A stretch of DNA of 53,888 nucleotides from a virus (taxonomy: Duplodnaviria; Caudoviricetes). The DNA is taken from positions 1 to 53,888 of IMG/VR virus record IMGVR_UViG_3300031578_000046; one strand, 5' to 3'. The notes below the pieces were generated by a model that was not told where the DNA came from, ran no database searches, and worked only from the letters and a program-made list of their open reading frames with translations. Below, piece after piece: positions 4,981-26,806 of the stretch. The translations under genes were made by a program, and so were the position numbers. Numbering within the stretch: the first letter of the stretch is position 1; the number at the start of each line of letters is the position of its first letter.

Positions 4981-4989
4981 TTATGTTAA

Positions 4990-5023
4990 GTTTAAAATTT
5001 TGAACTGACTTTATACAATTGTT
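4990..5023 (+). other. attI-like array entry site, copy 1
   Basis: GTTTAAAATTTTGAACTGACTTTATACAATT-GTT, directly before the first cassette. Confidence 0.7.
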
Positions 5024-5294
5024 AGCGGCAAGCGAAGAAAGGCTTCGGCATTGGCTTCCAATATATTATTTTATTACTTGGTGGTGGACTGCTTTTATAT
5101 CTATTTTCCCACTTCTCACTACCATCGGTAAATTTAAAGTGCATTAAATGGTGTATTGTTCTGTTTTCAAGCATTACAATATATTCTGCTGTCATATCTG
5201 TTTGCGGTGGATAAAAAATATATGAACGCCAGCCGCTAACAAGCAATATAAAAAATGCCTTAAAGTGTGCTAAAATTGAAGTTCTTGTTTTCAT
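5022..5294 (-). CDS. Cassette gene, DUF551-like C-terminus
   Basis: IIYWKPMPKP motif; starts in attC loop, TAA at crossover. Confidence 0.6.
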   Translation of the reverse strand: MKTRTSILAHFKAFFILLVSGWRSYIFYPPQTDMTAEYIVMLENRTIHHLMHFKFTDGSEKWENRYKSSPPPSNKIIYWKPMPKPFFACR

Positions 5295-5358
5295 ATTTAC
5301 TTTATTTTTAATTGATAAATTAGTTCTTTGTAGTCGGCACTTTTCATATTGCCGACCA

Positions 5359-5697
5359 TTAGGCAACATAATGCGCTACTGCTGCCATCCAAAGTATATG
5401 TATAACGTTATCAACTATCACATGCCCCCAAAATTTGCTAAAATCATTCTGGAATTTACCAGTCACCCTGCAAAACCAAGCTACAAAATGTGTTCGGTCT
5501 TGTATGTAATGTTGTACTGCAATAAGCAATAGTTGTATTAAACTTAGTTCTGTAAATATAAACGGTATCATGTACGTTAAAATGTGTACACTACACGCAA
5601 AGTCGCTTTTCTTTTTGTTACCTGCCATCCAATCATTTTGTAGCAAGTAGTCACCTATTAAGTGGGCTAATATCCAAGGCAAATTTAGTCCTATCAT
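5359..5697 (-). CDS. Cassette gene, DUF3307-like membrane protein
   Basis: LAHLIGDYLLQNDWMA, QHYIQD, DNVIH motifs. Confidence 0.75.
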   Translation of the reverse strand: MIGLNLPWILAHLIGDYLLQNDWMAGNKKKSDFACSVHILTYMIPFIFTELSLIQLLLIAVQHYIQDRTHFVAWFCRVTGKFQNDFSKFWGHVIVDNVIHILWMAAVAHYVA

Positions 5698-5951
5698 AAT
5701 TACGTTGCCTAACAATAAATATAGCAAATAGCCAAGTTAGGCGTGCATTTGTCACTATCTGCGTGTTTATAATCATTTTACTGTATTCAAAGTTTGTGCT
5801 ATTTATGGCTACTTGCCATATTCTCAACGTTAGCAAACATTAAAACGATTTGCTAACACGGTATATAACCAATGCTTACCGTGTAGCTTCGTATTAAGTT
5901 TCTGCAAGTGCTTTAAAAATTTTGCCAACGCTCTTTAATTTTTTTCAAAAA

Positions 5952-6383
5952 TTATTTTTTAGTTTCATCACAAATATTATATTTTGGACAATAAGTACAT
6001 GGCTGTGGAGGTTTTAAAAAATCATCATTTTTTACAGTAAAAAATTCATATAAGTCTTTGCATAAATATCTATCACACTTTAAAGGCATTCTTTCACCTC
6101 CATTTTTAATTATTGATTTTATTCTTAATTTACCATAACGCCAAGGTGATTCTAATTTATATGAATACATTTGTATATTTTTTACTTTACAATAAAAATC
6201 TATACTTAAATACTCACCATCTTCAGATGTTTCAGTTTCTTTTATTAAATGTTTACAAAAATTAAAACACGAATGTTTATTATTAGGATTTTCTTTACAT
6301 GCTTTTTCGTGTTTTATGCAATCATTTGACCTTTTATAAATTTTATTACAGTAATCGCATTTAAAAGCTTCTATTTTTTCCAT
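5952..6383 (-). CDS. Cys-rich (zinc-finger-like) protein inside an attC loop
   Basis: CDYC...HEKAC and CTYC motifs. Confidence 0.65.
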   Translation of the reverse strand: MEKIEAFKCDYCNKIYKRSNDCIKHEKACKENPNNKHSCFNFCKHLIKETETSEDGEYLSIDFYCKVKNIQMYSYKLESPWRYGKLRIKSIIKNGGERMPLKCDRYLCKDLYEFFTVKNDDFLKPPQPCTYCPKYNICDETKK

Positions 6384-6547
6384 AATTTATTTATATTAAT
6401 GTTAAAAAATGCCCCCTAAAAATTTTTAAAACAGGAACTCCTGTTCTCGTATCGAAATTTGTAGGTTTATTCGCACTGGTCATATACCCACCGTTATGTA
6501 CAAGCGCAAAGCAGTACATCTAATAAAGTTCAGTGGGAGTAATTTTA

Positions 6548-6736
6548 TTATTTTTTCTTCCTACCTCCTCTTTTAACATCAAGTTTTCTAACTTCTAATT
6601 GCCAATCTAAATGTATCGGAAATTTTTTACCTTTTAAAGTATGATAATTATAACCTAATTCATCACACATAATTTTTAAATTACCAAACGGCATAATTTG
6701 CTTTTTATACCAATCAATATATAGTATTGTTTTCAT
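6548..6736 (-). CDS. Hypothetical protein (cassette cargo)
   Basis: ORF with AT-rich leader. Confidence 0.55.
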   Translation of the reverse strand: MKTILYIDWYKKQIMPFGNLKIMCDELGYNYHTLKGKKFPIHLDWQLEVRKLDVKRGGRKKK

Positions 6737-6862
6737 TTTTATTTTCCCAAAATATTATTGATGATTCAAATGGATATATAACTCTTGCTTGATGTTTTCC
6801 ACATTTAATACATTTTCTTTCAGAAGGAGTTATCATAATCCATTTATGTCTATGTAATAATT

Positions 6863-7054
6863 TCATATTTGTGTAGCTTTTAAATTACTTAAATCTGGAA
6901 AATTTATTAAACAATTGAGTTTATTAATCGCTCTGTGTTTTGCATTATCTTTAGTTGTGGCATCAATAAACATTGTTTTTCCTTCTGGAAATAATTTTTG
7001 AGCAAGTTTACAATTTCGCCCCTTACTACTTAATTCTACTGCAAATGTTTTCAT
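6863..7054 (-). CDS. Hypothetical protein (cassette cargo)
   Basis: ORF downstream of a promoter-like element near 7082. Confidence 0.55.
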   Translation of the reverse strand: MKTFAVELSSKGRNCKLAQKLFPEGKTMFIDATTKDNAKHRAINKLNCLINFPDLSNLKATQI

Positions 7055-7286
7055 ATATTATGTGATTTTTTTAATTATACGTAAATATAGTTATTATGTT
7101 TCTAATAAACAAGAATTATAGTGTTTATTTTTCTATTTTAATTAAAATATTTTTGCCATCACACAAAAAATAATAAAATTACCTTTCTTCGTAGCGTGCT
7201 AAGTGGCTGATAATGCGCCAGTACATAACACGCAATAAAGCACATTAAAACGATGCCTTATTGCTGTCCGTTGTACGCAATAAAAA

Positions 7287-7493
7287 TTACTTACGTACTA
7301 GTATATTTAATGGTTCTTTGCCTTTTCCTATCAAATATTTATCTACCGCAATTGCAGCTTCTCTTTCTGTATCATAAGTTTTTCTGCAAACATTTGGCAG
7401 TGTTATCATCCAGTAATTTTTATCAGTAGTTTGAGCACACTGCTGTACATATTTGTATTTACTTTTTCCGTATTTTGTTGTCTGTTGTGCCAT
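7287..7493 (-). CDS. AP2-like DNA-binding protein (cassette gene)
   Basis: SKYKYV...W...TYDTEREAAIAVD pattern. Confidence 0.55.
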   Translation of the reverse strand: MAQQTTKYGKSKYKYVQQCAQTTDKNYWMITLPNVCRKTYDTEREAAIAVDKYLIGKGKEPLNILVRK

Positions 7494-7602
7494 AAGTCGT
7501 AATTTTAAAAGCGTACAACACGCTGTATAGTTAATAAGCCGGATAGTTTTGTGCGTTGATTTGGGGCTGTGTGGTCGGCTTACATAACCATACAGCCATC
7601 CA

Positions 7603-7896
7603 TTATAAACAAGCGTAAATAAGCACACCTAAGATTAAACCAACTACAAAACCTACAATTCTGTTATTTATTGGATCGTTCCAAAAACGCCAGTTTATAA
7701 CATTTTGTAAATGCAAGCCGTTTGCGCTCGCATCAGCTTTCACAGCCGCACTATCTAAACTATCAAATACGGTGTCTTTAATCTCATCCCATATTTCAGG
7801 TTCGTGTTTTTTAATCAACCTTAATAATTTAAAGTAAGTTTCTCCATTCATTGAAACTCCGCTAATTGTCACTTTTACATCTTTAATATCTGCCAT
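7603..7896 (-). CDS. Cassette gene with C-terminal TM helix
   Basis: Starts in attC loop, TAA at crossover. Confidence 0.6.
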   Translation of the reverse strand: MADIKDVKVTISGVSMNGETYFKLLRLIKKHEPEIWDEIKDTVFDSLDSAAVKADASANGLHLQNVINWRFWNDPINNRIVGFVVGLILGVLIYACL

Positions 7897-7975
7897 CGCT
7901 CGGTTATTTATAATTTATATTCACGTTCATAATTTTGTGCTATTTTCAACAACGGCCAGCACTTACAAGTTGCCG

Positions 7976-8281
7976 TTAGCGGCAAGCTGGCCTCCACAAT
8001 TCAAATTTATCCATTAATCCGTCATCCCTCATCACCTTACCTACTCCTATATATTCAGCTTCTACCCAATCTATATTTCCTTTATATCTAATTCTATCAC
8101 CTATTTCTGGCTTTTCATCTTCAATATTCAGCCAGCCGCTAACATGCGGTATAGGTAATTTGCCGTCCTCCGATTTAAGTTTGTGCAAATCTGCCAAAAA
8201 ATTATCAACTAATTCTTTTGTTTCAAATCCTTCCAATGCTTTAGAAAGATTTTCATACTTTGTTATTAATTTCTGTATCAT
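7976..8281 (-). CDS. Cassette gene, hypothetical
   Basis: Starts in attC loop (LPIPHVSG), TAA at crossover. Confidence 0.6.
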   Translation of the reverse strand: MIQKLITKYENLSKALEGFETKELVDNFLADLHKLKSEDGKLPIPHVSGWLNIEDEKPEIGDRIRYKGNIDWVEAEYIGVGKVMRDDGLMDKFELWRPACR

Positions 8282-8355
8282 AATTTTTTTAAGTTAAGTA
8301 TTTCAATTCAAGTCTGGTGCGGTGCGTGGGGCAAACATACCCATACCGCCAGCCG

Positions 8356-8607
8356 TTAGGCACAATGGTAAGTTGCACCTTTCTTCCATTCCTCCACACG
8401 CTTTTGTGCTGCCTCTAATGTTTTAAAGCTTTTACTAAATGGTTGTAGTATCGGCCAAGTTTGTATCACACCACCCCACGCATTTGTTCTGTACCAACTC
8501 CATTCTTTGCGTTTCCACCAAAGCATTCCTTTTTCTTCATATCCTCGTATTTGTATCTCAAATGCTCCGCAATATTCTCTAATTCTATATTCTACTTCTT
8601 TTTTCAT
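8356..8607 (-). CDS. Cassette gene, hypothetical
   Basis: Fills the cassette body, TAA at crossover. Confidence 0.6.
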   Translation of the reverse strand: MKKEVEYRIREYCGAFEIQIRGYEEKGMLWWKRKEWSWYRTNAWGGVIQTWPILQPFSKSFKTLEAAQKRVEEWKKGATYHCA

Positions 8608-8748
8608 AAACCACTGTGCCTAACAATAAATATAGCAAATAGCCAAGTTAGGCTTGTATTTGTCACTATTTGCATGTTTATAATCATTTTACTGTATTCA
8701 AAGTTTTGTGCTATTTATGGCTACTTGCCATATTATCAACATTAGCAA

Positions 8749-9000
8749 CTATAAATTGCCTTCAATAAATCTATCTACGTGTCTTTCTGGTATGTACAGG
8801 TGCATTTCCTCGTCCTCATTAATCCATTCACGAAAGGCAATTAACAGTTCCCTTCGGTTGCTAACAACGGGTATAGCAAATAATTTTACTATCTTTTCTG
8901 TGTAATTGTTAATACTTTCTTGTATTTCACCAATTGTATTATCTCTCTCGGTAATCTGATTCTCAAATTCAATTAATAATTTTTTTACTTCTTTTTTCAT
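8749..9000 (-). CDS. Cassette gene, hypothetical
   Basis: Starts in attC loop (FAIPVVSN). Confidence 0.6.
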   Translation of the reverse strand: MKKEVKKLLIEFENQITERDNTIGEIQESINNYTEKIVKLFAIPVVSNRRELLIAFREWINEDEEMHLYIPERHVDRFIEGNL

Positions 9001-9055
9001 AATATAGTTTTTTAGTGTTTCAAATCCGTAAAATTACATTGCCATACCCAAAACG

Positions 9056-9295
9056 TTATAAAACATTTGCCAACCGCACTATTGTTGTCAATTTAATTTC
9101 TTCTTTTTTCAGTGGACATTCATTTGGGATATTTCCGTCACGGCTATTCTCGTGTGTTATTATCATACACTTGTATGGGTCTTTAAGCTTTTCAAAATAT
9201 GGATGACCACATTTCATAGCATTTCCTGATGTCGTGTAGAATGGACATTCATTCCAACATCCTTTTACTTTTTTGGTTTTCTTTATAATTTCCAT
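9056..9295 (-). CDS. Cassette gene, Cys-rich hypothetical
   Basis: CWNECPF...CPLK; TAA at crossover. Confidence 0.6.
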   Translation of the reverse strand: MEIIKKTKKVKGCWNECPFYTTSGNAMKCGHPYFEKLKDPYKCMIITHENSRDGNIPNECPLKKEEIKLTTIVRLANVL

Positions 9296-9490
9296 CGTTA
9301 AAAACGTTTTATAACAACGTATAAAATTAATTGCTACGTTATTGGGTTATTTAATGTATTTACTTTTAATCAATTTTTAGTAGTTTGCGAAAGTCGTGCA
9401 TCTAACACGCAACTAATCTTATACCAACGTTATACACAAGCGTAAGAAAGTTTCGTTCATTTAATCAACACCTGTGCAACCTTGCCATAA

Positions 9491-9679
9491 TTATTTTTTG
9501 CCTTCGCTCTTACAATTTTTCAAATTGTTTAGGAATTGGTTTAATGGTTCTTCCCAATGTTTAGCAAGTTTTTGAGAGCCGTTAACAGCTTTTACTAAAG
9601 TAGTGTCGGGCATCTTTAATTGTCGTTCTATTCCTCTAAGGCTTAACGAGTCTTTATTTTTTCTTAGCCATTCTAACAT
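9491..9679 (-). CDS. Small HTH protein (cassette cargo)
   Basis: LSLRGIERQLKMPDTTLVKAVNG, Cro-like HTH. Confidence 0.6.
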   Translation of the reverse strand: MLEWLRKNKDSLSLRGIERQLKMPDTTLVKAVNGSQKLAKHWEEPLNQFLNNLKNCKSEGKK

Positions 9680-10050
9680 GAAGCTCCGCTTAAATAGTTA
9701 GCCATATTGCATGTATCAAATAATGATGCAGGTTTTTTAATCCTTTCATTATTTTCTTCTAATCCTTTTAGGATCCATTCTAATTTTTGAATGTCTTGTA
9801 TTTGCTCCATTATCGTAATTCTGCCTTTACTTTCTCCTTCGCTACCAGTTTTATGAACTAAACACACAACACCACCAACCGAAACATAAGCACCTATTAT
9901 TTCATATTGGATTAAATCATCTTCAATATAATCAACCCAACCGCAACTACAATAAGCGTTTGTTTTTATACTATTATTAATAATACGCTCAGCCTCATTA
10001 CACATTAGCTTGATAAGGGCTTGTTTTGCTTCTTTAATTTCAGTTTTCAT
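9673..10050 (-). CDS. Hypothetical protein (cassette cargo)
   Basis: ORF downstream of the promoter at 10078-10085. Confidence 0.6.
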   Translation of the reverse strand: MKTEIKEAKQALIKLMCNEAERIINNSIKTNAYCSCGWVDYIEDDLIQYEIIGAYVSVGGVVCLVHKTGSEGESKGRITIMEQIQDIQKLEWILKGLEENNERIKKPASLFDTCNMANYLSGASC

Positions 10051-10077
10051 AATCTTAGTTTTTCGTTAAACAATATC

Positions 10078-10085
10078 CAAATATA
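10078..10085 (-). promoter_or_regulatory. Bacteroidota -7 promoter element
   Basis: TATATTTG on minus strand matches TAnnTTTG, 28 bp upstream of ATG. Confidence 0.55.
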
Positions 10086-10280
10086 AGGGTAATATATTTA
10101 ATATCCTAATATAAAGGTAAAAAAAGAACCCCTCCCTAAAAAATAATTATTACTTCCGTGTTTCAAATGTAGGTAAGTGATTAAACGCCAGTGTATAACA
10201 ACGCATAAAAATAAAAGCCTTTGGAAGCTTATTATTTCAAATTAACGTTGTAGTGTCGGCTTCAATTCTTATGCAAACCG

Positions 10281-10496
10281 TTAGGTTTCATTTGCCACCG
10301 CCACACGGTTATCAGACTCCCACGCCTCAATTGCAAAATGCTGTGACCGTATGTAGTTTTCATGACTACGATAGCCACATTTAGAACATTCAAGCCTAAA
10401 AGCAACACCGTTAAACGAACTGCCATTGTCTCCACATTCTTTGTCTATTTCTGCTTCTCCTCCGCATTTTTTACATGGTATTTTTTCTGTACTCAT
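10281..10496 (-). CDS. Lar-like zinc-ribbon protein (cassette gene)
   Basis: PCKKCGGEA...CSKCG...AIEAWE pattern of Lar restriction-alleviation-like proteins. Confidence 0.55.
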   Translation of the reverse strand: MSTEKIPCKKCGGEAEIDKECGDNGSSFNGVAFRLECSKCGYRSHENYIRSQHFAIEAWESDNRVAVANET

Positions 10497-10670
10497 AATC
10501 TTGTTTTTACCCCACCGCACAAAACGAAAACCTAACAATTTATATATTGCAAATTTTTTAGTAATTGTAGGTGAGTGGTTATTAATTTATTTTATCTCTA
10601 ATTGTTAATTTATCTCATTCTGGTTGCAAAATTCGACAACATATAAGTTGCCGTTAGCAGCCATACAAGG

Positions 10671-10847
10671 CTACTTTTCATATCTTATTGCTCTGTCTTT
10701 CATTATGTGCCCACACTCAATGCATGGCTTTTCAAACCACACTTTACCATCATGCTTACATCCTTTACATACAGTTATTTCAACCTTAGTAGTACGGCTG
10801 CTAACAATATGTTTAGGTAATTGGGATTTTGTGTTATCTTGTTTCAT
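10671..10847 (-). CDS. 58-aa Cys-rich cassette gene (not in ORF track)
   Basis: MKQDNTKSQLPKHIVSS...CKGC...CIEC; starts in attC loop. Confidence 0.5.
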   Translation of the reverse strand: MKQDNTKSQLPKHIVSSRTTKVEITVCKGCKHDGKVWFEKPCIECGHIMKDRAIRYEK

Positions 10848-10930
10848 TGCATTTCAATTTTAAGTTTATCAATATTTGGTAGGGTAGTGCAAGTAATCCC
10901 AACTACCCAAACACTCAACATTAGGGCGAA

Positions 10931-11251
10931 TTAAGCCGACTTAATAAGTTTAAGGCTATCTTCACCAAAACCCGAAAAAGAATTGAAATTATAGCAGGTG
11001 TTTGCTTTTACAAATGCTTTCTGCCAAAGTTCCATCCCTTTGCTTCCAAGTACATATAATGGAGTTCCGTCACAATCTCTAACGCATCCAATTATATACA
11101 GTCTCATTCCTGCATATTCACAATCTTCATCCCAAGCTATAATTTCAACCAAGTCATCTACTTTATACTTGTGCTGTTTAGCGTTATTTTCTTCTCTATA
11201 AGTTTTCCCAGTTTTCGGGTTTTTAAGGTCTGCAATATTTATAAGTTCCAT
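10931..11251 (-). CDS. Cassette gene, hypothetical
   Basis: Fills the cassette body 10920-11275. Confidence 0.65.
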   Translation of the reverse strand: MELINIADLKNPKTGKTYREENNAKQHKYKVDDLVEIIAWDEDCEYAGMRLYIIGCVRDCDGTPLYVLGSKGMELWQKAFVKANTCYNFNSFSGFGEDSLKLIKSA

Positions 11252-11371
11252 ATCTAAAAATTAACTCGCCCTAACAATAAATAAACCCAATATGGCAGGG
11301 GCAAGGTTCTGCCATTGTTTAAAGTTCGGTAGGCTGCCAAACTGTGTTTATTAAAACCGTTGTGTGTAATA

Positions 11372-11665
11372 CTACTTACTAAGCTCAATTAAGCAATTCT
11401 TTAGTATTTCAAACGCATCCTCTTGCGCTGCTTCTGTTGTGGAAAATCCAGCCCCACGCTCACTCGGTTCATGCAAGCTTTCTTCTAACACTTGCAATGC
11501 TTTTTCGGCAGCATCTTCTATTGCGTTATCCACACGCTCACGCTCTTCAATTTCTTCCATAGCTATTCCATAACCTTCCCAGTTATCTACTCCAGCGCAT
11601 TCCAACGCACGCATTTTAGCTTCAATCAACTCTAATTCTTTTAATCTACTTTTTGAAATTTCCAT
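11372..11665 (-). CDS. Cassette gene, hypothetical phage protein
   Basis: ALECAGVDNWEGY motif familiar from small phage proteins. Confidence 0.65.
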   Translation of the reverse strand: MEISKSRLKELELIEAKMRALECAGVDNWEGYGIAMEEIEERERVDNAIEDAAEKALQVLEESLHEPSERGAGFSTTEAAQEDAFEILKNCLIELSK

Positions 11666-11797
11666 TTTATTTAAGTTTTGCGGCTTAAAGTACTACACAC
11701 AACAACGTATATAGTTAAAAAGCCATGTTAATATTCGTTCATTTAATCAGCGTTTGCAGTTGGCTTTCAAACCATATACCAACGTTAGCGGTAATTG

Positions 11798-12178
11798 CTA
11801 CACCACTATCGGCTCTTCGCAAAATGGACATTCGCCAATCTGTATTACTTTTGTTTTGTAGAAGCTCCACGCACTAGCCCTATCAATTTCACTTTCGGTT
11901 ATTGGTGTATACCAGTTTCCAGAAACTTCGCCTGTAATATCATAATATCGTCCATTGTATTTAGTTATTACGTGGTCTTTTTCTTTGCTTATAAAAGCCT
12001 CACTTTCTGGGAAGAATGTTTTTAGCAACAAGTGAAATTGATAACACGCACCATTCATATAAATCATTTCAATATACCTATCTGTTTGGCGAAGTGCGTT
12101 AATAAACCGCAACATACCGCTAACAATACCTATATTTAATTGGGCGTTTACTGCCTCTTCAAACTCTTTTGCTTCCAT
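11798..12178 (-). CDS. Cassette gene, hypothetical
   Basis: Starts in attC loop; GACYQF...HV...YYDITG. Confidence 0.65.
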   Translation of the reverse strand: MEAKEFEEAVNAQLNIGIVSGMLRFINALRQTDRYIEMIYMNGACYQFHLLLKTFFPESEAFISKEKDHVITKYNGRYYDITGEVSGNWYTPITESEIDRASAWSFYKTKVIQIGECPFCEEPIVV

Positions 12179-12251
12179 TTTGCTTTACTTTATATTGATA
12201 ATTTAGTGCTATTAATGCCCAACTAAACATAGCCGAGCCGTTAGCAAACAT

Positions 12252-12455
12252 TTATAAACCGAATCGTTCAGGTTTATAAATTTCGTGCTTCCAATCTTTT
12301 AAATGAGTTTCAGTACTCTTTTTAATTTTTGCGTGTGCAGGTATTTTTTGGTCAGTAAGCAAACATTCGAATATCAAGCCAGTAAATACCTTAGGAGCTG
12401 TATAGTCTTCTAACCAGTAAACTATTCCTATTTCTAAATTTTGTGTGTAGTGCAT
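12252..12455 (-). CDS. Cassette gene, hypothetical
   Basis: Fills the last cassette of array 1; start taken at MHYTQN. Confidence 0.5.
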   Translation of the reverse strand: MHYTQNLEIGIVYWLEDYTAPKVFTGLIFECLLTDQKIPAHAKIKKSTETHLKDWKHEIYKPERFGL

Positions 12456-12745
12456 AATAAAACGATTTGCTAACACAACCTATACACCATAAAGCGATAT
12501 AGTATTGTATTAAGATTAAACATTGTGCTCTTTTTGCTATGTCTATTTTTGGCATGAGTATTTTTTAATTTTTATTTATTAATAAGATATTATTTTTACC
12601 GGCTTCTTTACCTGCATAATAAAATTCTAAAAATTTAGTAAAAAATAACATATCAAATTCTTTTCGTGTAAATTTATTACTTATAGTTTCATAAACTTCG
12701 TCCATAAATTTAGTTATATCAAAACATTATTTTTCTTCAAAAAAA

Positions 12746-14134
12746 TTAAAACATGTCATTTTCGAATTCTTTATTTACTTCTAAATAATTATCAAATATT
12801 ACAATATCTTCAACATCCCATTTTGTAAGACTATTATCATTAACCTTTACTATTATATCATCTAACATTCCATTCCTATGTTTAGATATTATAATTTCGA
12901 CAATATTAACAAGCGAATTACCCTCATCATCTTGAAAAATTCCATATTTTTCAGGCCTATGTAAAAACATTACAATATCTGCATCTTGCTCAATAGCTCC
13001 TGATTCTCTTAAATCAGAAAGCTGAGGTCTTTTACTACTTCTGTTTTCAACACCTCTGTTCATTTGGCTTAATGCAATAATAGGTATATCTAATTCTTTT
13101 GCCAAAACCTTTAGCCCCCTGGATATACTTGATATTTCTTGTTCTCTACTTTTTTTATTTTGTTCATTCGAATTTGTCATTAATTGAATATAATCAATTA
13201 TTATCAATTGAATATCATATTTCATTTTTAATCTTCTTGCTTTAGCCCTTAATTCCATTAAAGATAATGCCGCCGTATCATCTAAATATATAGGCAAATC
13301 GACTATTTTGTTTAAATGATTATCCAATATTTCCCATTCTATATTACCATCTCTTAAATTAGTTGGTGTATATTCTGAATCAATACACATTAATCGCCCT
13401 GTTAATTGATTTGTTGACATCTCTAATGAAAATAAAGCAGTTGGCACATTTGAATTTTTAGCACAATTAAGCGCATAAGCAGTTTTTCCCATTGATGGCC
13501 GAGCTGCTATAATTATTAAATCAGTTTTTTGCCATCCTGAAATAATTCTATCCACCCTTGTTATACCAGAAGGAATACCAGTTAATTTATTTTTTTGCTT
13601 TTGTATTATTTCGATTTCTTTAATCTTATCTCTTATAGCTTCTTTTAAAATAACGGCATCTTTTTTAATATTAAAATCAGTCACTTGATATAATTCATTT
13701 TCAGAATAATCTATTAAATCTTCTAATTCAATTGATTCATCAAAGGCCATATTTTGTATGGCCGATGAAACCCTTATTAATTCCCTTTGTATAAATTTCT
13801 GATAAATAATTCTAGAATGAAACTCTATATTTGATGCAGAAGCAATACTATTAGTAAGTTGTATAATATAAAAAGGGCCACCAATTTGATCTAATTTGCC
13901 TGATAATCTTAATTGTTCTGTTATTGTTAATATATCAATAGGATTTGACTTTGTATTTAATTCTATTGCAGCTTTATATATTATTTGATGAGCTTCTTTA
14001 TAAAAGCTATCTGGTTTTAAAAAATCACATATTTCATAAATAGCATCTTGTTCTAACATTAAAGCTCCTAATACAGCTTCTTCCATATCCACAGCTTGCG
14101 GAGGTATTTTACCGTATTCAAAATAATTATTCAT
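12746..14134 (-). CDS. dnaB: Replicative DNA helicase
   Basis: PPQAVDMEEAVLGALM, AARPSMGKT, FSLEMS, IIIDYIQL, SDLRESGAIEQDAD, KHRNG. Confidence 0.97.
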   Translation of the reverse strand: MNNYFEYGKIPPQAVDMEEAVLGALMLEQDAIYEICDFLKPDSFYKEAHQIIYKAAIELNTKSNPIDILTITEQLRLSGKLDQIGGPFYIIQLTNSIASASNIEFHSRIIYQKFIQRELIRVSSAIQNMAFDESIELEDLIDYSENELYQVTDFNIKKDAVILKEAIRDKIKEIEIIQKQKNKLTGIPSGITRVDRIISGWQKTDLIIIAARPSMGKTAYALNCAKNSNVPTALFSLEMSTNQLTGRLMCIDSEYTPTNLRDGNIEWEILDNHLNKIVDLPIYLDDTAALSLMELRAKARRLKMKYDIQLIIIDYIQLMTNSNEQNKKSREQEISSISRGLKVLAKELDIPIIALSQMNRGVENRSSKRPQLSDLRESGAIEQDADIVMFLHRPEKYGIFQDDEGNSLVNIVEIIISKHRNGMLDDIIVKVNDNSLTKWDVEDIVIFDNYLEVNKEFENDMF

Positions 14135-16987: not shown

Positions 16988-17038
16988 TAATATTAATTTG
17001 GTTAATATTTAAGACAATAGATTTTCTATTGAATATTG

Positions 17039-17072
17039 GTTTAAAATTTTGAACTAACTTTATTCAATTGTT
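17039..17072 (+). other. attI-like array entry site, copy 2
   Basis: GTTTAAAATTTTGAACTAACTTTATTCAATT-GTT. Confidence 0.7.
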
Positions 17073-17448
17073 AGCAATCAGTTTGCCGAGCAGAGCAATC
17101 ATAATCACCGTGTTTACATATATTGTTTTCATTATTTGCACAAGCATTTGAGTAGCAAACCGAATTGCTAACAAGTTGTATAATTAATGCTTTGTTCTCG
17201 TCTGTAATTTTTGCCCACGCACACTTTTCTTTGTCAAGTCCGTACAAGGCATTGCTAATCTCATTGTTAATATCTTCCCACCTATCATCTTCCTCAATCT
17301 CCTGCTCTTCCTCACATCCGCATTGCCTGCATATAGTTGTGTTTAAATGCCACTTATTACTACATACACCATCGTTTAGGTCAAATATTGCTCCGCAATG
17401 CTCGCAGGGTGTTGGCATTTCCATTTGTTCTAAATCATATTCTTCCAT
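17071..17448 (-). CDS. Cassette gene, Cys-rich
   Basis: CEHC/CRQC; starts in attC loop, TAA at crossover. Confidence 0.6.
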   Translation of the reverse strand: MEEYDLEQMEMPTPCEHCGAIFDLNDGVCSNKWHLNTTICRQCGCEEEQEIEEDDRWEDINNEISNALYGLDKEKCAWAKITDENKALIIQLVSNSVCYSNACANNENNICKHGDYDCSARQTDC

Positions 17449-17529
17449 CGCTCGTAAATTTTAAAGTTTGTATCTCGTATTATCTTTTCTGCAAATTTGG
17501 TAAAGCGCACTAATCATACAACAGTACCG

Positions 17530-17841
17530 TTATGCCCCATTAGGCTTAACATCTTCTACTCTATATTTAAGTACTTCTGTTTCTGAAACACCGCAACACA
17601 CGCATCTAATTACATCTACTATTTCATCGTGCATTATTTCGGCTGCAGGGCTTTGTACTGGCACATCTACCCAAGTGTTACTACGTAGTCGCCCAATAAC
17701 TTTGTGTGTGTATTGTTCATTTTTACAGCCATGTCTTTTCTGCTCAATTATTCCGTAATCTCCAAAATCTAAAACGGGGCATAACAATGCATCATATTGC
17801 ATAGCCTCGTTGTTATCGGTAGTTTCGTTCTTTTTATTCAT
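17530..17841 (-). CDS. Cassette gene, hypothetical
   Basis: Starts in attC loop, TAA at crossover. Confidence 0.6.
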   Translation of the reverse strand: MNKKNETTDNNEAMQYDALLCPVLDFGDYGIIEQKRHGCKNEQYTHKVIGRLRSNTWVDVPVQSPAAEIMHDEIVDVIRCVCCGVSETEVLKYRVEDVKPNGA

Positions 17842-17913: not shown

Positions 17914-18624
17914 CTAAAAAGACAGCGTACCTTGTTTGATACTTTCTGAAATTCGTTTGATTGCCTTGTCAATATATTCTTTGTCGATTTCACACGCTGT
18001 TAAGTGTAAATTCATTTTATCTAATCGGTTTGCTTTATCAACTGCCAAAGCTATTGAGCCGCTCCCGAAATGGGTATCTAATATCTTCATTCCTTCGGTT
18101 GCGTAGTTTTTTAAAGTATAACTATACAAACATATTGGTTTTTGTGTGGGATGGAACGTGCCCCCTTCACGCACTAAAACAAGTGGATTTTTAGTATATT
18201 CACGCAAAGCCCTATTAAATGAAGTGTAAGCAAGTTCAGCATCGGAACTGCTAAAATTACCACGGTCTTTTCTCCATATAATCCAGCCCATCGAAGGCTT
18301 TAAATATTCCACCATATAGTTAGCTCCCCAAATTATTTGGTTTTTGCTTACTCTGTATAATTCTTTAAAGTAATCTTCTGTTGGTATGTTTGTATCCCAG
18401 CCTTTAAATTCGTGGGCTTTTCTTCCTCCGTGGCTTCCGCTTGTTTGTTTTGCACCATCATACCCAATCCCATAAGGTGGGTCAACAATAGCCAAATCAA
18501 AGTATTTATCAGGGTATTGCTTCATAATTTCCATACAATCAGCGTGGAAAAGAGAAAGAAAAGGCAGCCGATAACACTCGCTATATGCAATTTGGGGGTC
18601 GGTGGTATTCGTAAGTTCGTTCAT
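17914..18624 (-). CDS. DNA methyltransferase (N6-adenine/N4-cytosine, beta class), cassette gene
   Basis: DLAIVDPPY, HPTQKP, ILDTHFGSGS. Confidence 0.92.
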   Translation of the reverse strand: MNELTNTTDPQIAYSECYRLPFLSLFHADCMEIMKQYPDKYFDLAIVDPPYGIGYDGAKQTSGSHGGRKAHEFKGWDTNIPTEDYFKELYRVSKNQIIWGANYMVEYLKPSMGWIIWRKDRGNFSSSDAELAYTSFNRALREYTKNPLVLVREGGTFHPTQKPICLYSYTLKNYATEGMKILDTHFGSGSIALAVDKANRLDKMNLHLTACEIDKEYIDKAIKRISESIKQGTLSF

Positions 18625-18849: not shown

Positions 18850-19188
18850 TTATAAATTGAAAGGTATGTTATTTTTCTCTAAATTCAAAATTATTTTGTT
18901 AAAAATAGCCTCATCAATTAATAAAATATCCATCATTACATCATTGAATAATGGTAATATTTCAATTGCATCTGTTATATTATTATCAAAAATATCATGA
19001 CATTGGTGATGTGCTAACCCTGTATTCAAATCCATACATTCATATTCTTTACTCTCAGATATTCTAATCTTATGGGCTAATTGACCATGACTTCCAATAA
19101 AATGGCCGCAAAAAATACAATAAGGCTCTTTTTCTATTAGCCACTTTTTACGTTTTGATTTCCAGTTTTTTATCTGATTATTTGTCAT
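18850..19188 (-). CDS. HNH-like endonuclease
   Basis: CIFCG...QLAH...NTGLAHHQCH. Confidence 0.55.
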   Translation of the reverse strand: MTNNQIKNWKSKRKKWLIEKEPYCIFCGHFIGSHGQLAHKIRISESKEYECMDLNTGLAHHQCHDIFDNNITDAIEILPLFNDVMMDILLIDEAIFNKIILNLEKNNIPFNL

Positions 19189-19640
19189 TATATAAAGTTT
19201 AAAATATCCCGTTCAAAATCCTCCATTGAAATATCTTTTAAAAAGTGTTTCAATATTACATCTAGAGATTTACTATAAATCTCGCTAAATTTATTATTAT
19301 CCATGCTTTTAAATGATATACTTCTTGCTTGCGGTATTGGATTACTATCCTCTTTTAATGTTGGGATTACATCAAATTCACCTATTAATATCATTATATA
19401 TTTTCTTATCTTATCAATATGGCCAAAATCAACCATTAAATTTTCCGGTAAATGATTAATAGTACAATTTAATAAAGCGAAGTACTTTCTATGAAAATCA
19501 ATATTCCTTTCTTTCCATGTTTCAATCTCACAATAATCGCCCTCATCTAATTTAAGTAACTTTTTAAAATTATCATCATTTATAGCACTAATTCCGGTCA
19601 TAAAAAATTCTAAGTTTTTTATTTGTAATTTAGCTTTCAT
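19188..19640 (-). CDS. DUF1367/NinB-like protein
   Basis: RNIDFHRKYFALL and RSISFKSMD...FSEIY. Confidence 0.7.
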   Translation of the reverse strand: MKAKLQIKNLEFFMTGISAINDDNFKKLLKLDEGDYCEIETWKERNIDFHRKYFALLNCTINHLPENLMVDFGHIDKIRKYIMILIGEFDVIPTLKEDSNPIPQARSISFKSMDNNKFSEIYSKSLDVILKHFLKDISMEDFERDILNFI

Positions 19641-20296: not shown

Positions 20297-21073
20297 TTAA
20301 AATAAAGTGTTATCAACATTTTCTTTTTTGAAACTTAATGGATATTCAAGTATTTTAGGATTAGCCTTTTTATTTGCCCTCCACCATAATTTTTGACAGT
20401 ATTCAAAATATTCATAATTTTCATCAATACTATTTTTCGACTCTTCTAATTTCCAACCCTTCCCCTGTATTACTTTGCCTGTTTTATCTTCGCCCCTGGT
20501 TGCAGCTTTTAAATGAAGTATTCCGGTTTTCTCAATCTTATAGTTAGGATTAAGCATATCCCATGCCTTAGCATAAGCCGCAATTTGTAAATAATGGCTA
20601 TCATAAACAGCATTACCTGACTTATAATCAATTAACCAAATTGAACCATTTAATTTGCATATCATATCAATTGTGCCGCCAAAACCTAGTTCATCTGATG
20701 CAAAAGAAAATTCATGAACTATAATTTCAGGATTATATTTAAACATAAATTCCATCGCCTTACAAAGAAGTACCCATTCATCCCATTTCCACAATTCAAC
20801 TTCATTATCATTCATATATTTTAATTGTCCTGTTTTAACAAATTGATCTATTCCGTTGTGTACATTACTCCCAATTTCACCAGCTTCTTTTAATATTTGC
20901 GAAGCATTCATCCCCACCTGTTTAAGCCAAATAGTAAAAGCAGCACCTTTTGGGTAGGCTTCAAGAAACGTTGTAACTGAGGGTAACCATGTACCCGGGT
21001 TTTTCTTTGATTCGTAGTAATGTTCGTCCGGAATTACTATCTTATTATTAAGATTGTCTATAAATTTATTCAT
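20297..21073 (-). CDS. PD-(D/E)XK exonuclease
   Basis: LPSVTT, GSNVH, GGTID...LIDYKS, QIAAY. Confidence 0.85.
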   Translation of the reverse strand: MNKFIDNLNNKIVIPDEHYYESKKNPGTWLPSVTTFLEAYPKGAAFTIWLKQVGMNASQILKEAGEIGSNVHNGIDQFVKTGQLKYMNDNEVELWKWDEWVLLCKAMEFMFKYNPEIIVHEFSFASDELGFGGTIDMICKLNGSIWLIDYKSGNAVYDSHYLQIAAYAKAWDMLNPNYKIEKTGILHLKAATRGEDKTGKVIQGKGWKLEESKNSIDENYEYFEYCQKLWWRANKKANPKILEYPLSFKKENVDNTLF

Positions 21074-22562: not shown

Positions 22563-22773
22563 AGTTTTAAATTTTGGTTTCGTTTAAATAATAAATATAA
22601 GCCAAAAATTCTTTCATGATCTGATTATCATTTTCAGTTACTTCGCTGCCTGGTGATAATTGATAAAGTTTATTTAATTGTTTCATAGCTGTTTGTTTAA
22701 TTATATTTAAAGATAATTAATAATTTTTATAAAATATATGACTTTTATCATGTTTTGTTATTTATAATCATTA

Positions 22774-22828
22774 TTAATAATTATCAGTTACAAGTTTTAA
22801 ACAAATTAATAAGCGATCTATCAGTCAT
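22774..22828 (-). pseudogene. Internally deleted remnant of gene 4750..4980
   Basis: Sequence matching 4750-4778 is joined to sequence matching 4959-4980. Confidence 0.75.
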
Positions 22829-22837
22829 TTATATTTA

Positions 22838-22871
22838 GTTTAAAATTTTGAACTAACTTTATTCAATTGTT
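22838..22871 (+). other. attI-like array entry site, copy 3
   Basis: GTTTAAAATTTTGAACTAACTTTATTCAATT-GTT. Confidence 0.7.
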
Positions 22872-22879
22872 GTGCGCAA

Positions 22880-23170
22880 TTAAAACGCACCTTCCTGCTC
22901 AATTTCTTCTATCTTTAATTCAAGTTCATCCACATTTTCTGCTTCTTCAATACCCCATTGTCTTAGTTCGTCATTACTTGCCCTTAATTCTTCCAAATAA
23001 TCAATGCAACTTTCAAGTTCATAAGACATATCAGCGGCTGCGGAGTATAAATCATCGTATTCAAGTCCTTCTAACTCTCTGTCTTTATACAATACTTGCT
23101 TTATAGCTTTTATGTATTTATCAATATCAGGGCAAGTATGCTTTATCGGTTCTCTAATATGTGAAGCCAT
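22880..23170 (-). CDS. Cassette gene, coiled-coil phage protein
   Basis: HTCPDID...LEELRASNDELRQWG. Confidence 0.65.
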   Translation of the reverse strand: MASHIREPIKHTCPDIDKYIKAIKQVLYKDRELEGLEYDDLYSAAADMSYELESCIDYLEELRASNDELRQWGIEEAENVDELELKIEEIEQEGAF

Positions 23171-23314
23171 AATTAACTGCGCACAACACTAAATAAAACA
23201 AATAGCCGTGCTATGCGGTCTTTTTAAAGCTATTTGTAAGTTTGTAATATATTTAATCTTTGTAGCTATTATCTTGGGCTACTAGTTTTATTATTTACGT
23301 TAGCAACAAGCCTG

Positions 23315-23683
23315 CTATTCAAAGCATTTTTTATTCTTGTTGCATACGTGGTTTATTGGTCTTATAGTGCAATTACTAGCATTTTTGCAGGCCAGATTGC
23401 TAACACCAAATATATTTAATGCTTGGTTGGTGCTTTTAATAGGCATTTCGCCCTCACACACTTTTTGCAAAGCTTCTATATCTATCAAGTTTAGTTCTTC
23501 AGCAATACTATATGCTATCTCATACGTGCCTTTTGCTTTTTTGGGCTTATGGTTTCTAAACTCAATTTCTCTGCCTAACTCAAAGTCGTATCTCTTATCT
23601 GTAAAAGGCACTTGCTTCGTGTAGCTGTAATCAACTATTAGCTTCCTTTGGTGTCCATCAAATTTTATGTTATATATTGCCAT
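23315..23683 (-). CDS. Cassette gene, hypothetical
   Basis: Starts in attC loop (LNIFGVSN). Confidence 0.6.
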   Translation of the reverse strand: MAIYNIKFDGHQRKLIVDYSYTKQVPFTDKRYDFELGREIEFRNHKPKKAKGTYEIAYSIAEELNLIDIEALQKVCEGEMPIKSTNQALNIFGVSNLACKNASNCTIRPINHVCNKNKKCFE

Positions 23684-23757
23684 CGCTCTGTATTTTTATC
23701 GTTTGTACTATTAATTAAAGTTCGTGCTAATTTTACGCACTAAACATATTTTTTTCG

Positions 23758-23967
23758 TTAGCGGTCATTGTCGTTCTTTTTCAACCATCGCATAAATGAG
23801 TTAAACCCTGCATCTATTTCGGCTTCTGGGCTATATGGTGCAACTTCTCCTAAGTTTGTAGCTTTCCATTCATCTACCAATTTTTCTACTTTTTGGTAAA
23901 ACAACGAACCGCTAACACTAAATATAGGCAAATTGCCGTTTTTATTTGTTTCTTTATTTGTACTCAT
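23758..23967 (-). CDS. Cassette gene, hypothetical
   Basis: Starts in attC loop (LPIFSVSG), TAA at crossover. Confidence 0.6.
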   Translation of the reverse strand: MSTNKETNKNGNLPIFSVSGSLFYQKVEKLVDEWKATNLGEVAPYSPEAEIDAGFNSFMRWLKKNDNDR

Positions 23968-24031
23968 AGGTCAGTTTATTTTATTAAGTTTCTACTAATT
24001 TTCAAGGGCAATCAGCCCATATTATTTTCCA

Positions 24032-24220
24032 TTATAAACAATAAAAATATGACAGCATTGCCATTAATCCAACCACACCAATCATACCACAAATCACAGC
24101 AATTTTACCACCTATCATTAATCTTCTACCATGTTTTTCATTTTCAACCACCACTCCCCACACACGGTATTCTGGTTCAATGTGTATTATCTTACTTTCG
24201 TCAATTATTGGTTCTTTCAT
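24032..24220 (-). CDS. Cassette gene with TM helix
   Basis: TAA at crossover; hydrophobic C-terminus. Confidence 0.55.
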   Translation of the reverse strand: MKEPIIDESKIIHIEPEYRVWGVVVENEKHGRRLMIGGKIAVICGMIGVVGLMAMLSYFYCL

Positions 24221-24340
24221 GTTTTAAAAGTTTATAACAATATACATAGTTAATTTACCGTGCTTTATTGCTACATTGGTTTATAATTTAATCTTTATCT
24301 TTTTGTTGTTGCCTCAGTTTAAACGCACCTTACCCAAACG

Positions 24341-24613
24341 TTAACTTTTGCATTTTATGCATTTTTTATCAGAAATTGAATGTTCCTTTAGTGCTATAAA
24401 TGCCTTATTTTTTTCAATTGGACTTCCATTTTCATCGGTAAATTTACATTTTTCAATTTGAGTTACTATCTCACTTAAATATTCGTATTTCATAAAAAAA
24501 TCACGAATAAGTTTAGCACATTGCTTTACCATACTTCGACCTTCCTTTTTACAGGCTTCTTTAAATTTCTCTTTTTCCTCGTCTGTTACTTTTATTTTTT
24601 CTATGTATGCCAT
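24341..24613 (-). CDS. Ribbon-helix-helix-like protein
   Basis: EKIKVTDEEKEKFKEACKKEGRSMVKQCAKLIRDF. Confidence 0.5.
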   Translation of the reverse strand: MAYIEKIKVTDEEKEKFKEACKKEGRSMVKQCAKLIRDFFMKYEYLSEIVTQIEKCKFTDENGSPIEKNKAFIALKEHSISDKKCIKCKS

Positions 24614-24637
24614 AATTTTATAGTTTTTACCACCAAA

Positions 24638-24697
24638 AGCCCGAACGTTTCCGAACGGGCTGAAATCCTGCAAGAACTTTACAGGAAACTTGCAGGG
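24638..24697 (-). terminator. Tandem GC-rich hairpins (terminator-like)
   Basis: AGCCCG...CGGGCT followed by a U-run on the minus strand; second stem CCTGCAAG...CTTGCAGG. Confidence 0.5.
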
Positions 24698-24913
24698 TTA
24701 AAATATTCCTTCAATTCTATAATTTACAGTTGAACGAGCAAGTAAATTATCTATTTGAAATTCCAATTCATCATAATTTTCTGGCTCTTCTTCAAAGAAA
24801 TAACACCCAAATTCTGAATTCCATTCAGTATAAAAATCAGAGTTTGCAATAGCTTCGTGAATAACTCTTTCTGCATCCTTTGTACTTGGAGTTAATTGTA
24901 GTCCTGTTTTCAT
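24698..24913 (-). CDS. Hypothetical acidic protein (probable early gene)
   Basis: ORF with repeated leader sequence. Confidence 0.6.
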   Translation of the reverse strand: MKTGLQLTPSTKDAERVIHEAIANSDFYTEWNSEFGCYFFEEEPENYDELEFQIDNLLARSTVNYRIEGIF

Positions 24914-25027
24914 TTTGTAAAGTTTTTAGTTAATAATTATTTGTTTTATTAATTATAACGTCTAAATTACGTATAAGTTTTAATATATTATATGACTTTT
25001 GTCATGTTTTGTTATTTATAACCATTA

Positions 25028-25082
25028 TTAATAATTATCAGTTACAAGTTTTAAACAAATTAATAAGCGATCTATCAGTCAT
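25028..25082 (-). pseudogene. Second deleted remnant of gene 4750..4980
   Basis: Same deletion junction as 22774-22828. Confidence 0.75.
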
Positions 25083-25091
25083 TTATATTTA

Positions 25092-25125
25092 GTTTAAATT
25101 TTTGAACTGACTTTATTCAATTGTT
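25092..25125 (+). other. attI-like array entry site, copy 4
   Basis: GTTTAAATTTTTGAACTGACTTTATTCAATT-GTT. Confidence 0.7.
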
Positions 25126-25280
25126 ATCGTTCATTGCCGTGAAAAGGCAGTGTTTAAAACGAATAGAAAGAAGCACGGCAACGAAAACGATAACAATGCG
25201 TAAATTCCATGCTTACTTTCTACCTCGTTTCTAAGTCGGTGGGTAATCGAGCAATTAAAAATAAAAGCCCTCACACCGTT

Positions 25281-25511: not shown

Positions 25512-25638
25512 TTGTAAAGTATTTATTATTTGGGTACTCTATTAAAAGTTTTCCCCTTCCCTTTTTTATTTTTAATTTGTTCTCGTTTCAACTTCATCGG
25601 TTATTCCGCACGTAACTTACGCTAATCATTATATGGCA

Positions 25639-26672: not shown

Positions 26673-26806
26673 AATATTTAGTTTTAAATTATTTACCAAA
26701 GGTAATATAATATTCCTAATAATGAAACATTGCAAGGTATTTTTTAACTAAAACCTAACAATGTATAAAATTCATTAAAACGAAATTTTATACTCAACGT
26801 TATAGG

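Follow-up and report, generated by a model that had tools for sequence, protein, structure and literature searches.

In classical integrons the attC site acts as a folded bottom strand, recombination is carried out by IntI with the crossover at G|TT, and each cassette consists of an ORF followed by its own attC. The pdif modules of Acinetobacter plasmids are gene modules bounded by inverted short recombination sites; the palindromes of REP/RAYT systems are short, tagged and spread by a dedicated enzyme, and REPs do not bracket genes. T4-type phages reportedly carry PeSL (promoter-early stem-loop) cassettes, ascribed to Arbiol et al. 2010, which are thought to drive modular shuffling.

The locus described here lies in a phage genome held as an IMG/VR record of 53,888 bp (hereafter the window, meaning the whole stretch of DNA that was analysed) with ~30% G+C, in which the minus strand bears nearly all ORFs. 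A 29-nt hairpin at positions 5829-5857 is best read as an unfilled cargo slot; the hairpin frame to which it belongs is widespread and frequent among phages whose hosts are probably Flavobacteriia. The frame resembles integron cassettes in having a single-strand-specific folded site, mutually complementary ends and stop codons within the YAAC box, and the AA|C crossover that may operate here is the complement of the integron G|TT. Unlike integron cassettes, the gene-to-site orientation is reversed and the body hairpin travels upstream of its gene; the end pairing is much longer, and a fixed G.T may stand in for extrahelical bases; genes are found inside the site’s own loop, and a second exchange point appears to lie at the conserved loop. 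As in T4-type PeSL cassettes, short conserved stem-loops flank small accessory genes in plastic phage regions; PeSL cassettes rely on direct repeats, a promoter and homologous recombination, whereas the genes here lie within covarying inverted repeats and sigma-70-type promoters show no enrichment. The arrangement is also like that of pdif in placing gene modules between inverted short sites, though no Xer-type 11-6-11 site came to notice, and unlike REP/RAYT in that genes are bracketed and the Y1 transposase (PF01797) is missing from the phage.

The closest published system is that of Qi et al. 2023, who describe, in the part of the account available, integrase-free attC clusters in virulent phages including Polaribacter phage P12002L; IntI1 recombined one of two tested P12002L sites into attI1 (PMC9892861). 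P12002L holds two hairpins with the loop TCGTTTTAATG, which flank methyltransferase genes and may or may not be the tested attC sites (P12002L_attC2). The present locus shares with the P12002L cluster its imperfect palindromes with AAC/GTT cores, small co-oriented genes, absence of a phage integrase and methyltransferase cargo. The alternating two-hairpin chain, shared loop, empty and filled states, two slots, G.T bias and metagenome spread are features of the present frame alone when set against the available part of that account (PMC9892861). A literature search, which was incomplete and could have left others, returned only Qi et al. 2023 (PMC9892861) on this architecture. The loop word itself was found in one paper solely as part of a primer.

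Phage genome and likely host

252-1550: large terminase of the phage
12746-14134: DnaB helicase
17914-18624: DNA methyltransferase
19188-19640, minus strand: NinB/Orf-type recombination mediator, part of the phage’s own general recombination functions
20297-21073, minus strand: PD-(D/E)XK exonuclease, likewise one of the general recombination functions
48094-49392: portal

A replication initiator is also encoded by the phage. The two genome ends repeat ~177 nt with at least one mismatch, and the genome is therefore probably closed; CheckV gives the record a completeness of 51%. By tblastn the terminase and portal found distant relatives only, the closest cultured relatives of the portal being Polaribacter phages at ~26% identity; the structural region had no megablast match among cultured phages, and the DnaB protein, when used as the query for related loci, found no relative. 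Sequencing runs that match the window are labelled as soil metagenomes, with no RNA run among those listed. A Flavobacteriia-type host is considered likely because the hairpin recurs in contigs of Flavobacteriales/Bacteroidota MAGs and in one Lutibacter isolate.

The phage encodes no tyrosine recombinase (PF00589), serine recombinase or Y1 transposase (PF01797). The Lutibacter holmesii genome holds no integron integrase above the curated cut-off; the same search of 301 genomes of the Lutibacter holmesii family gave none above cut-off, and gave no match in the control genomes either.

The 29-nt hairpin

5829..5857, minus strand: 29-nt vacant arm hairpin, GTTAGCAAA / TCGTTTTAATG / TTTGCTAAC on the coding strand

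On the plus strand these positions read GTTAGCAAA CATTAAAACGA TTTGCTAAC, a perfect 9-bp inverted repeat with 11 nt between its arms. An earlier note on this DNA had described a gene-free CATT-AAAACG hairpin at this place, and its sequence and coordinates hold; no ORF is present within 5829-5857. The fold energy of the 29-mer is -7.0 kcal/mol (z = -3.8), a value equalled by none of 200 shuffles. The word CATTAAAACG occurs three times in the window against 0.25 expected, a number reached in one of 100 shuffles; the bare 9-mer GTTAGCAAA, with up to one mismatch, shows no enrichment (26 in the window, 25.7 expected). Perfect GTT(6N)...(6N')AAC pairs on the coding strand, with both halves within 1.5 kb, number 37 against 14.9 +/- 3.5 in 100 dinucleotide shuffles, the largest of which gave 25.

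The sequence 3' of the 29-mer is GTTGAGAAT and contains no T-run. An intrinsic terminator, which pairs a G+C-rich hairpin with a T-run, is ruled out by the absent T-run and by the lack of enrichment, as terminator-like sites number three in the window against 3.9 expected, none of them at the 29-mer. Promoter-like sites of the sigma-70 type are likewise no more frequent than expected (32 in the window against 37.3). A search of the whole window against Rfam with E up to 1 gave a single weak, unrelated match and no family. A CRISPR repeat mimic is also ruled out; the 12 genome contigs concerned carry single copies in phage-like gene contexts and no arrays.

Body hairpins and the alternating chain

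5021..12474, minus strand: unbroken chain of 14 arm hairpins alternating with body hairpins
5728..5828, minus strand: start of the next unit, directly after TTTGCTAAC; a conserved ~140-nt body, seen again at 8608-8748
5858..6492, minus strand: attC-like body hairpin of the unit that ends with the 29-mer, with L'' at ~6475-6492, L' at ~5858-5880 and a gene between them
5952..6383, minus strand: gene of 143 aa without Pfam or PHROG family, in the loop of this body hairpin
7223..7276, minus strand: short attC-type body hairpin in the empty body state, YAAC-stem-TCGTTTTAATG-stem'-GTTR
26753..26805, minus strand: short attC-type body hairpin with the same loop TCGTTTTAATG

Two kinds of hairpin alternate in the window, an attC-like body (YAAC...GTTR) and an arm hairpin (GTTR...YAAC). 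The 20 arm pairs tabulated, which were selected from the GTT/AAC pair matches for shared flanking context, include the 14 of the chain at 5021-12474; further arm hairpins lie at 17070-17785, 22869-26759 and 52652-52889. On the coding strand the stop codons of many genes fall inside YTAAC, after which G(G/T)TG-(G)TATA(T/A)G... comes first and ...TATAC-(G/A)TT-GTTR later. Gene-free bodies measure 40-116 nt plus boxes; other bodies contain whole genes.

The body at 5858-6492 has an inverted-repeat score of 22 between its first and last 40 nt, and its L''/L' pairing as read from the sequence runs ACGG, a bulge, TATAT, G.T, ACCA, G.T and TGC. The earlier proposal that 5829-5857 is an empty cassette does not stand, since the unit ending with the 29-mer does carry a gene: 5952-6383 occupies the body hairpin, which leaves the arm hairpin empty. 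The same relation is seen across relatives of the 29-mer, which lies a median of 38 nt past an ORF (129 contexts); the 26 nt before it pair with the stretch just after the previous YAAC|G, beyond the ORF, in 70 of 115 contexts (score at least 24) against 3 and 1 in controls, and an empty arm hairpin thus implies a gene in the body-hairpin loop. The reverse state, in which the gene occupies the arm hairpin and a short body is closed by TCGTTTTAATG, is found at 7223-7276, at 26753-26805 and twice in Polaribacter phage P12002L. That CATTAAAACG forms the loop of these two shortest attC-type hairpins of the window, as had been noticed earlier, is borne out; in the folds of 7218-7281 and 26748-26810 the outer stem leads through an internal loop to an inner stem of 10-11 bp, which the 11-nt loop closes.

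Such a layout invites comparison with an ordinary integrase-less integron array (CALIN) served by a host IntI, in which the 29-mer would be an ORF-free cassette. The bodies resemble attC in their YAAC...GTTR boxes, internal loop, second stem and variable loop, with total sizes of 54-135 nt, and show the attC architecture of two paired boxes, an unpaired spacer and a variable loop; many sites in the window together with no PF00589 match agree with the definition of a CALIN, and the P12002L attC cluster, as far as the available part of the source goes, includes one site recombined by IntI1 (PMC9892861). YAAC and GTTR are present at 20 of 20 arm pairs, GTT and AAC having been required by the search, whereas the full GTTRRRY is found in only ~3-4 of these 20 core sites; GTTAGGT and GTTAGGC fit it, and most arm pairs read GTTAGCx or GTTATxx. 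Strands are marked by G.T pairs, a fixed G.T and small bulges, which may stand in for the extrahelical G and T of attC, and we know of no integron in which own-end pairing of at least 9 bp with a fixed G.T is a trait. The cassette order of an ORF followed by its own attC is not seen in the window and its relatives, as linkage, indels and a shared module all show the body travelling 5' of the gene, opposite to its side in usual cassettes. Genes inside an attC-like loop, and the failure to find IntI in the phage and the sampled host family, speak further against this origin, which is considered very unlikely. The frame is attC-array-like, yet it deviates in the core beyond GTTR, in the side that travels, in the genes inside the site and in the absent integrase.

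Empty and filled forms

9055..9315, minus strand: filled arm hairpin GTTATAAAA...TTTTATAAC with a 79-aa Cys-rich ORF
10280..10536, minus strand: filled arm hairpin GTTAGGTTT...AAACCTAAC with a 71-aa ORF
11359..11703, minus strand: filled arm hairpin GTTGTGTGTA...TACACACAAC with its cargo at 11372-11665
12240..12474, minus strand: filled arm hairpin with the arms of the 29-mer, GTTAGCAAA-TCGTTTTATT-ATG...TAA-ATG-TTTGCTAAC
12252..12455, minus strand: cargo ORF P0001 of 67 aa, without Pfam family, inside 12240-12474
17529..17785, minus strand: filled arm hairpin GTTATGCCCC...GGGGCATAAC

The hairpin at 12240-12474 had been noted earlier to share its ends with 5829-5857; these ends read GTTAGCAAACATT ... 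AAAACGATTTGCTAAC, and a 67-codon minus-strand ORF is confirmed between them. The arm-CATT...AAAACG-arm layout was likewise found at 9055-9315, 10280-10536 and 17529-17785 as described, and the empty 29-mer with the arms of 9055-9315 is present in two other loci (L045 and L151).

Filled and empty forms were searched for as GTTR(5N)(T)CGTT ... ATG(5N')YAAC within 2.6 kb across 2.3 Mb of loci, which gave 228 matches against 0 in a control with the free arm letters reversed. These reduce to 92 distinct elements, of which 17 are empty, all of exactly 29 nt, and 75 are filled, of at least 106 nt; none of the 92 is 30-105 nt long. The filled elements comprise 32 arm types, with different ORFs between (T)CGTT and ATG, while one 11-nt loop is shared by all 17 distinct empty forms. 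The proposal that empty and filled states of one hairpin frame exist is thus upheld, with 17 and 75 elements against 0 in the control. The identical GTTAGCAAA/TTTGCTAAC arms enclose at least 11 different cargos of 106-596 nt, the 3' side always being (A)ATG. The start of the cargo ORF usually lies 18-28 nt past GTT, and TAA(A)TG or the final YTAAC often supplies its TAA stop. A comparison of filled with empty forms, akin to the one suggested earlier as a check of the junction, places the start of the cargos at CATT^AAAACG (coding TCGTTT(T)^...ATG), and randomly varying junctions did not occur.

The CATT...AAAACG layout is real but is only one among several classes of inner ends. Among 216 distinct arm-bracketed single-ORF elements, (T)CGTT...ATG accounts for 42, AGTA...TATT for 52 and TGGCG...CGCTT for 12, with 110 others. 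When the inner motif was not demanded, in loci chosen for a 29-mer, 133 contexts had the 11-nt loop, 31 had loops of 14-79 nt and 20 had loops of 82-100 nt; the 31 contexts with loops of 14-79 nt blur a strict division into empty and filled states. Some of the 82-100 nt loops encode mini zinc-ribbon peptides.

Nine candidate empty/filled pairs and four indels included no locus that stands empty in one contig but carries cargo in another. Most of the nine pairs lie within one contig, and the sole between-contig pair is a whole-unit indel. In Logan contigs of four soil runs, joints such as 7291>7498 and 9074>9292 would represent emptied cassettes; their shorter side is 22-30 letters, and they were not counted for this reason.

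Spread and covariation of the hairpin family

The exact 21-mer core is found in 57 IMG/VR contigs, nearly always as the complete 29-mer and with flanks that vary, and in 12 genome contigs, mostly from Flavobacteriales or Bacteroidota MAGs and including one Lutibacter isolate. A blastn search of a 43-nt region against cultured phages gave weak partial matches (E 0.2-9) in Polaribacter, Cellulophaga and Tenacibaculum phages. Unrelated large phages were also picked up by a 16-mer query, through chance matches within coding genes.

The general form GTTR(5N)-TCGTTTTAATG-(5N')YAAC occurs in at least 120 stretches. The pattern fixed only GTTR, the loop and YAAC and left five arm positions free; among the matches listed, 37 distinct 29-mers (arm versions) and 160 distinct contexts were seen, and the five free positions were all Watson-Crick in 137 of the 160 contexts listed, a pairing that the pattern did not demand. 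These loci were picked from the matches listed by the hairpin motif itself, and their counts are to be read as biased samples. Across the 37 distinct 29-mers all six of the six variable pairs change on both sides, and 93.7% of cells are paired against 68.8% in shuffles; the arm covariation score is 0.653 against 0.179, reached in none of 500 shuffles and approached by no slid register. Lack of enrichment, which the earlier note had named as an outcome that would count against the motif, did not occur, given the 57 contigs and the covarying arms.

The 29-mer could in principle be a deletion scar, i.e. the remnant of a hairpin-stimulated deletion of a cassette like 12240-12474; its ends are as in the filled cassette, and one base (A) is shared at the would-be junction. 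The identical 29-mer in 57 contigs with differing flanks, the single 11-nt loop in all 17 distinct empty forms, and the use of the same loop to close body hairpins that lack such arms make this origin hardly credible. We conclude that the 29-mer is no scar but belongs to a hairpin family that is under selection and strand-specific.

Which strand folds

Across 64 distinct long-range body stems, 1179 pairs are Watson-Crick, 94 are G.T and two are A.C, with 24 other mismatches; the stems are partly related by descent and not independent, so that a binomial p of 1e-25 overstates their independence; the asymmetry is plain all the same. Counted outward from the 9-bp arm, the second position holds a G.T pair in at least 119 of the 216 elements. 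Of 77 copies of the loop motif, 76 share a strand; ~60 of these set the orientation, and the informative ones are all but one of ~17. As G.T is kept and A.C is not, pairing is maintained on the coding strand only. The folded molecule may be either single-stranded DNA of the coding strand or mRNA, as the G.T bias fits both equally.

The second of these possibilities underlies an explanation by RNA, in which mRNA stems bracket the ORFs for RNase III-type processing or nuclease protection, the 29-mer is a 3' stabilising or processing hairpin of 5952-6383, and mosaic breakpoints are a by-product of conserved sequence; rRNA genes are bracketed by processing stems in this manner. The 94 G.T against two A.C pairs are a classic mark of RNA pairing, and the conservation of G.T at a fixed place, the constant position of the motif on the coding strand (76/77) with all genes co-oriented, and the close succession of ORF and 29-mer are all consistent with it. 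Against it, no Rfam family was matched, no T-run is present and terminator-like sites are not enriched; in addition, many ORFs stop in or beside the 3' arm, where terminating ribosomes would open the long-range stems. RNA function by itself also fails to explain identical frames round unrelated cargos, breakpoints at the loop and at YAAC|, and hybrid arms (described below). This explanation is considered somewhat unlikely.

Breakpoints and proposed exchange

12475..12560, minus strand: body module upstream of the filled hairpin 12240-12474, recurring in six other contigs as far as TCGTTT(T)

Where two contexts have the same 29-mer, 56 pairs share 40 nt upstream only, one pair downstream only and one pair on both sides. 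An ~85-nt module running from AAC|GGTTTGG... to ...GTTAGCAAA-TCGTTT(T) is common to L228, L063, L065, L124, L092 and L113, and window positions 12475-12560 share the 3' two thirds of it; similarity in this module begins at AAC| and stops at the loop position, beyond which the contigs carry five different cargos. Reciprocal hybrid arms are also present, GTTATGGCA with TGCTATAAC and GTTATAGCA with TGCCATAAC. Four indels were seen between related contigs, three of which (1821, 746 and 2104 nt) have ...YTAAC| at either border and comprise whole units, not loop cargo; the fourth (L208/L253) is not at a hairpin. Units are bounded by 4-6 shared letters at YTAAC|, and these letters fit both AAC| and AA|C. 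In these sequence comparisons the breakpoints are shown to fall at the base of the arm hairpin (YAAC|) and in the loop, after TCGTTT(T), as places where exchange would have occurred.

Unitigs from four soil runs break at hairpin elements. Summed contig depth at 5601-5867 in run X1 is 127 against ~22 beside it, contig depth being a weak measure; the raised depth fits a sequence common to several co-occurring genomes.

Breakpoints adjoining conserved boxes could stem from short-homology recombination; the frame could supply short homology to the phage exonuclease and NinB. In its full form this explanation treats the hairpins as homology linkers comparable to T4-type promoter-stem-loop cassettes, short shared sequences that permit Red-like shuffling between co-infecting relatives, the hairpin shape being irrelevant. 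The PD-(D/E)XK exonuclease and NinB/Orf mediator are encoded by the phage, the length of the shared module, ~85 nt, suffices for such recombination, and the unitigs of the soil runs break at the elements at a depth ~five times that of the flanks. Shared homology nonetheless leaves the arm covariation and the one-strand pairing unexplained, together with the unit borders of only 4-6 shared letters at YTAAC|, and it is considered decidedly improbable as the whole explanation.

Cargo genes

The cargo at 11372-11665 belongs to the T7 gp5.9 RecBCD-inhibitor family (PF25708, E 2.8e-14, 53 bits against a cut-off of 24.5). The ORF at 10281-10496, the cargo of 10280-10536, is weakly Lar-like, under the curated cut-off, and its predicted product is possibly a restriction-alleviation protein. 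The product of 11798-12178 is YunG-like from residue 22 on, which fits a true start just past the arm at 12124. Methyltransferases recur among the cargos, and homologous cargos, mostly methyltransferases, are found in different arms and in both slots; most other cargos are without a known family.

Proposed mechanism

The reading preferred here takes the cassette frame to be strand-specific and built of two hairpins, each a potential cargo slot, with the 29-mer as one of these slots left unoccupied and with exchange proceeding as proposed below; this claim as a whole is given a probability of about one half. On the coding strand a unit is written C | L''...L' - GTTR(5N)...(5N')YAA | C, in which L''/L' make up the attC-like body hairpin and GTTR.../...YAAC the arm hairpin. 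A gene can lie in the loop of either, and the 11-nt TCGTTTTAATG can close the other. When single-stranded, e.g. as the lagging-strand template, the coding strand would be expected to fold into a rod with a loop at each end, one small and one gene-bearing. Whole units would be exchanged at AA|C, and cargo would be exchanged or taken up at the loop; the agent may be a structure-specific recombinase that is not encoded by the phage, possibly aided by the phage exonuclease and NinB.

A bolder proposal, which is put forward as speculation and is itself unlikely, makes the frame a self-contained, integrase-less phage device for gene capture. TCGTTT^TAATG would then be a structure-defined insertion site on the single-stranded coding strand, at which promoter-less ORFs, many of them counter-defence genes, would be taken up or released, and the 29-mer would be the natural empty acceptor.

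Significance for phages and integrons

Integron biology has yet to explain how cassettes come by their hairpin sites, and the shuffling of accessory genes in phages is poorly understood. For the present frame, sequence alone reveals a vacant state, a constant junction and dozens of cargos, and the cultured Polaribacter phage P12002L, which has the same loop, makes the system bench-testable; the strand-specific G.T signature provides a simple computational handle for finding such arrays. The link between the 29-mer and the genesis of integron cassettes is an analogy; if the gene-capture proposal were true, the 29-mer would be a living model for the birth of hairpin-bounded cassettes, those of integrons included. 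Because the cargos include a RecBCD inhibitor, DNA methyltransferases and a possible restriction-alleviation protein, the frame may be a phage-side counterpart of the bacterial integrons that store defence genes, and the frame of the 29-mer may illustrate gene exchange and uptake in such phages.

Genes and short coding stretches within arm hairpins

The cargo of one arm hairpin (GTTR...YAAC), at 11372-11665, belongs to the T7 gp5.9 RecBCD-inhibitor family (PF25708, E 2.8e-14), making it a counter-defence gene carried as a cassette. Very short arm-bracketed elements of 72-118 nt encode mini zinc-ribbon stretches (CxxC...CxxC); these are also seen in loci outside the window, and within it they lie at:

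17070-17172, CxxC...CxxC element
25123-25194, CxxC...CxxC element

The arms of the element at 17070-17172 fall within a longer ORF (17071-17448), so some hairpin frames may bound protein modules instead of whole genes.

The 29-mer, the 29-nt gene-free arm hairpin, has two disagreeing arms at L120:70-98 and L163:13659-13687, both loci outside the window, where GTTAGCAAA or GTTATGGCA stands opposite TTTTACAAC; these copies look like products of within-loop exchange between two different hairpins.

Repeated intergenic sequences

In several of the arm hairpins, what comes after YAAC is not the usual body but a second intergenic repeat family, CAATTG(A/T)ATAAAGT(C/T)AGTTCAAAATTTTAAAC...; its two long copies (22563-22879 and 24914-25130) have about 150 nt in common. 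Two further intergenic blocks are each duplicated between far-apart regions of the genome, and each contains a body hairpin (attC-like, YAAC...GTTR) and a G-rich stretch, TTAGGGAGGGG, ahead of a gene. In other contigs, too, genes that occupy body slots have this G-rich stretch in front of them.

4981-5021, 16988-17070, 22563-22879 and 24914-25130, second repeat family
10051-10280 and 51060-51230, near-identical block of about 170 nt
9438-9490 and 50488-50540, near-identical block of about 53 nt

Genome organization and ends

The small-gene region is separated from the structural genes by a 793-nt stretch (28852-29644) lacking minus-strand genes, which is filled by the sole sizeable plus-strand ORF of the window (29101-29631, 176 aa, with no Pfam family). 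A radical SAM protein gene (1917-2699; PF04055, E 1.9e-11) adjoins the terminase genes.

About 177 nt are repeated at both ends of the record (1-177 and 53712-53888), with at least one mismatch between the copies (C/T, near position 50). The genome probably either closes into a circle or has redundant termini, and is probably close to complete, even though the record lists it as linear and 51% complete.

The 29-mer in a cultured bacterium

An exact copy of the 29-mer is present in the chromosome of a Lutibacter holmesii isolate (L152, on a 364-kb contig), surrounded by small co-oriented ORFs. This region may be a prophage or phage-derived island; if so, it would provide a second culturable system.
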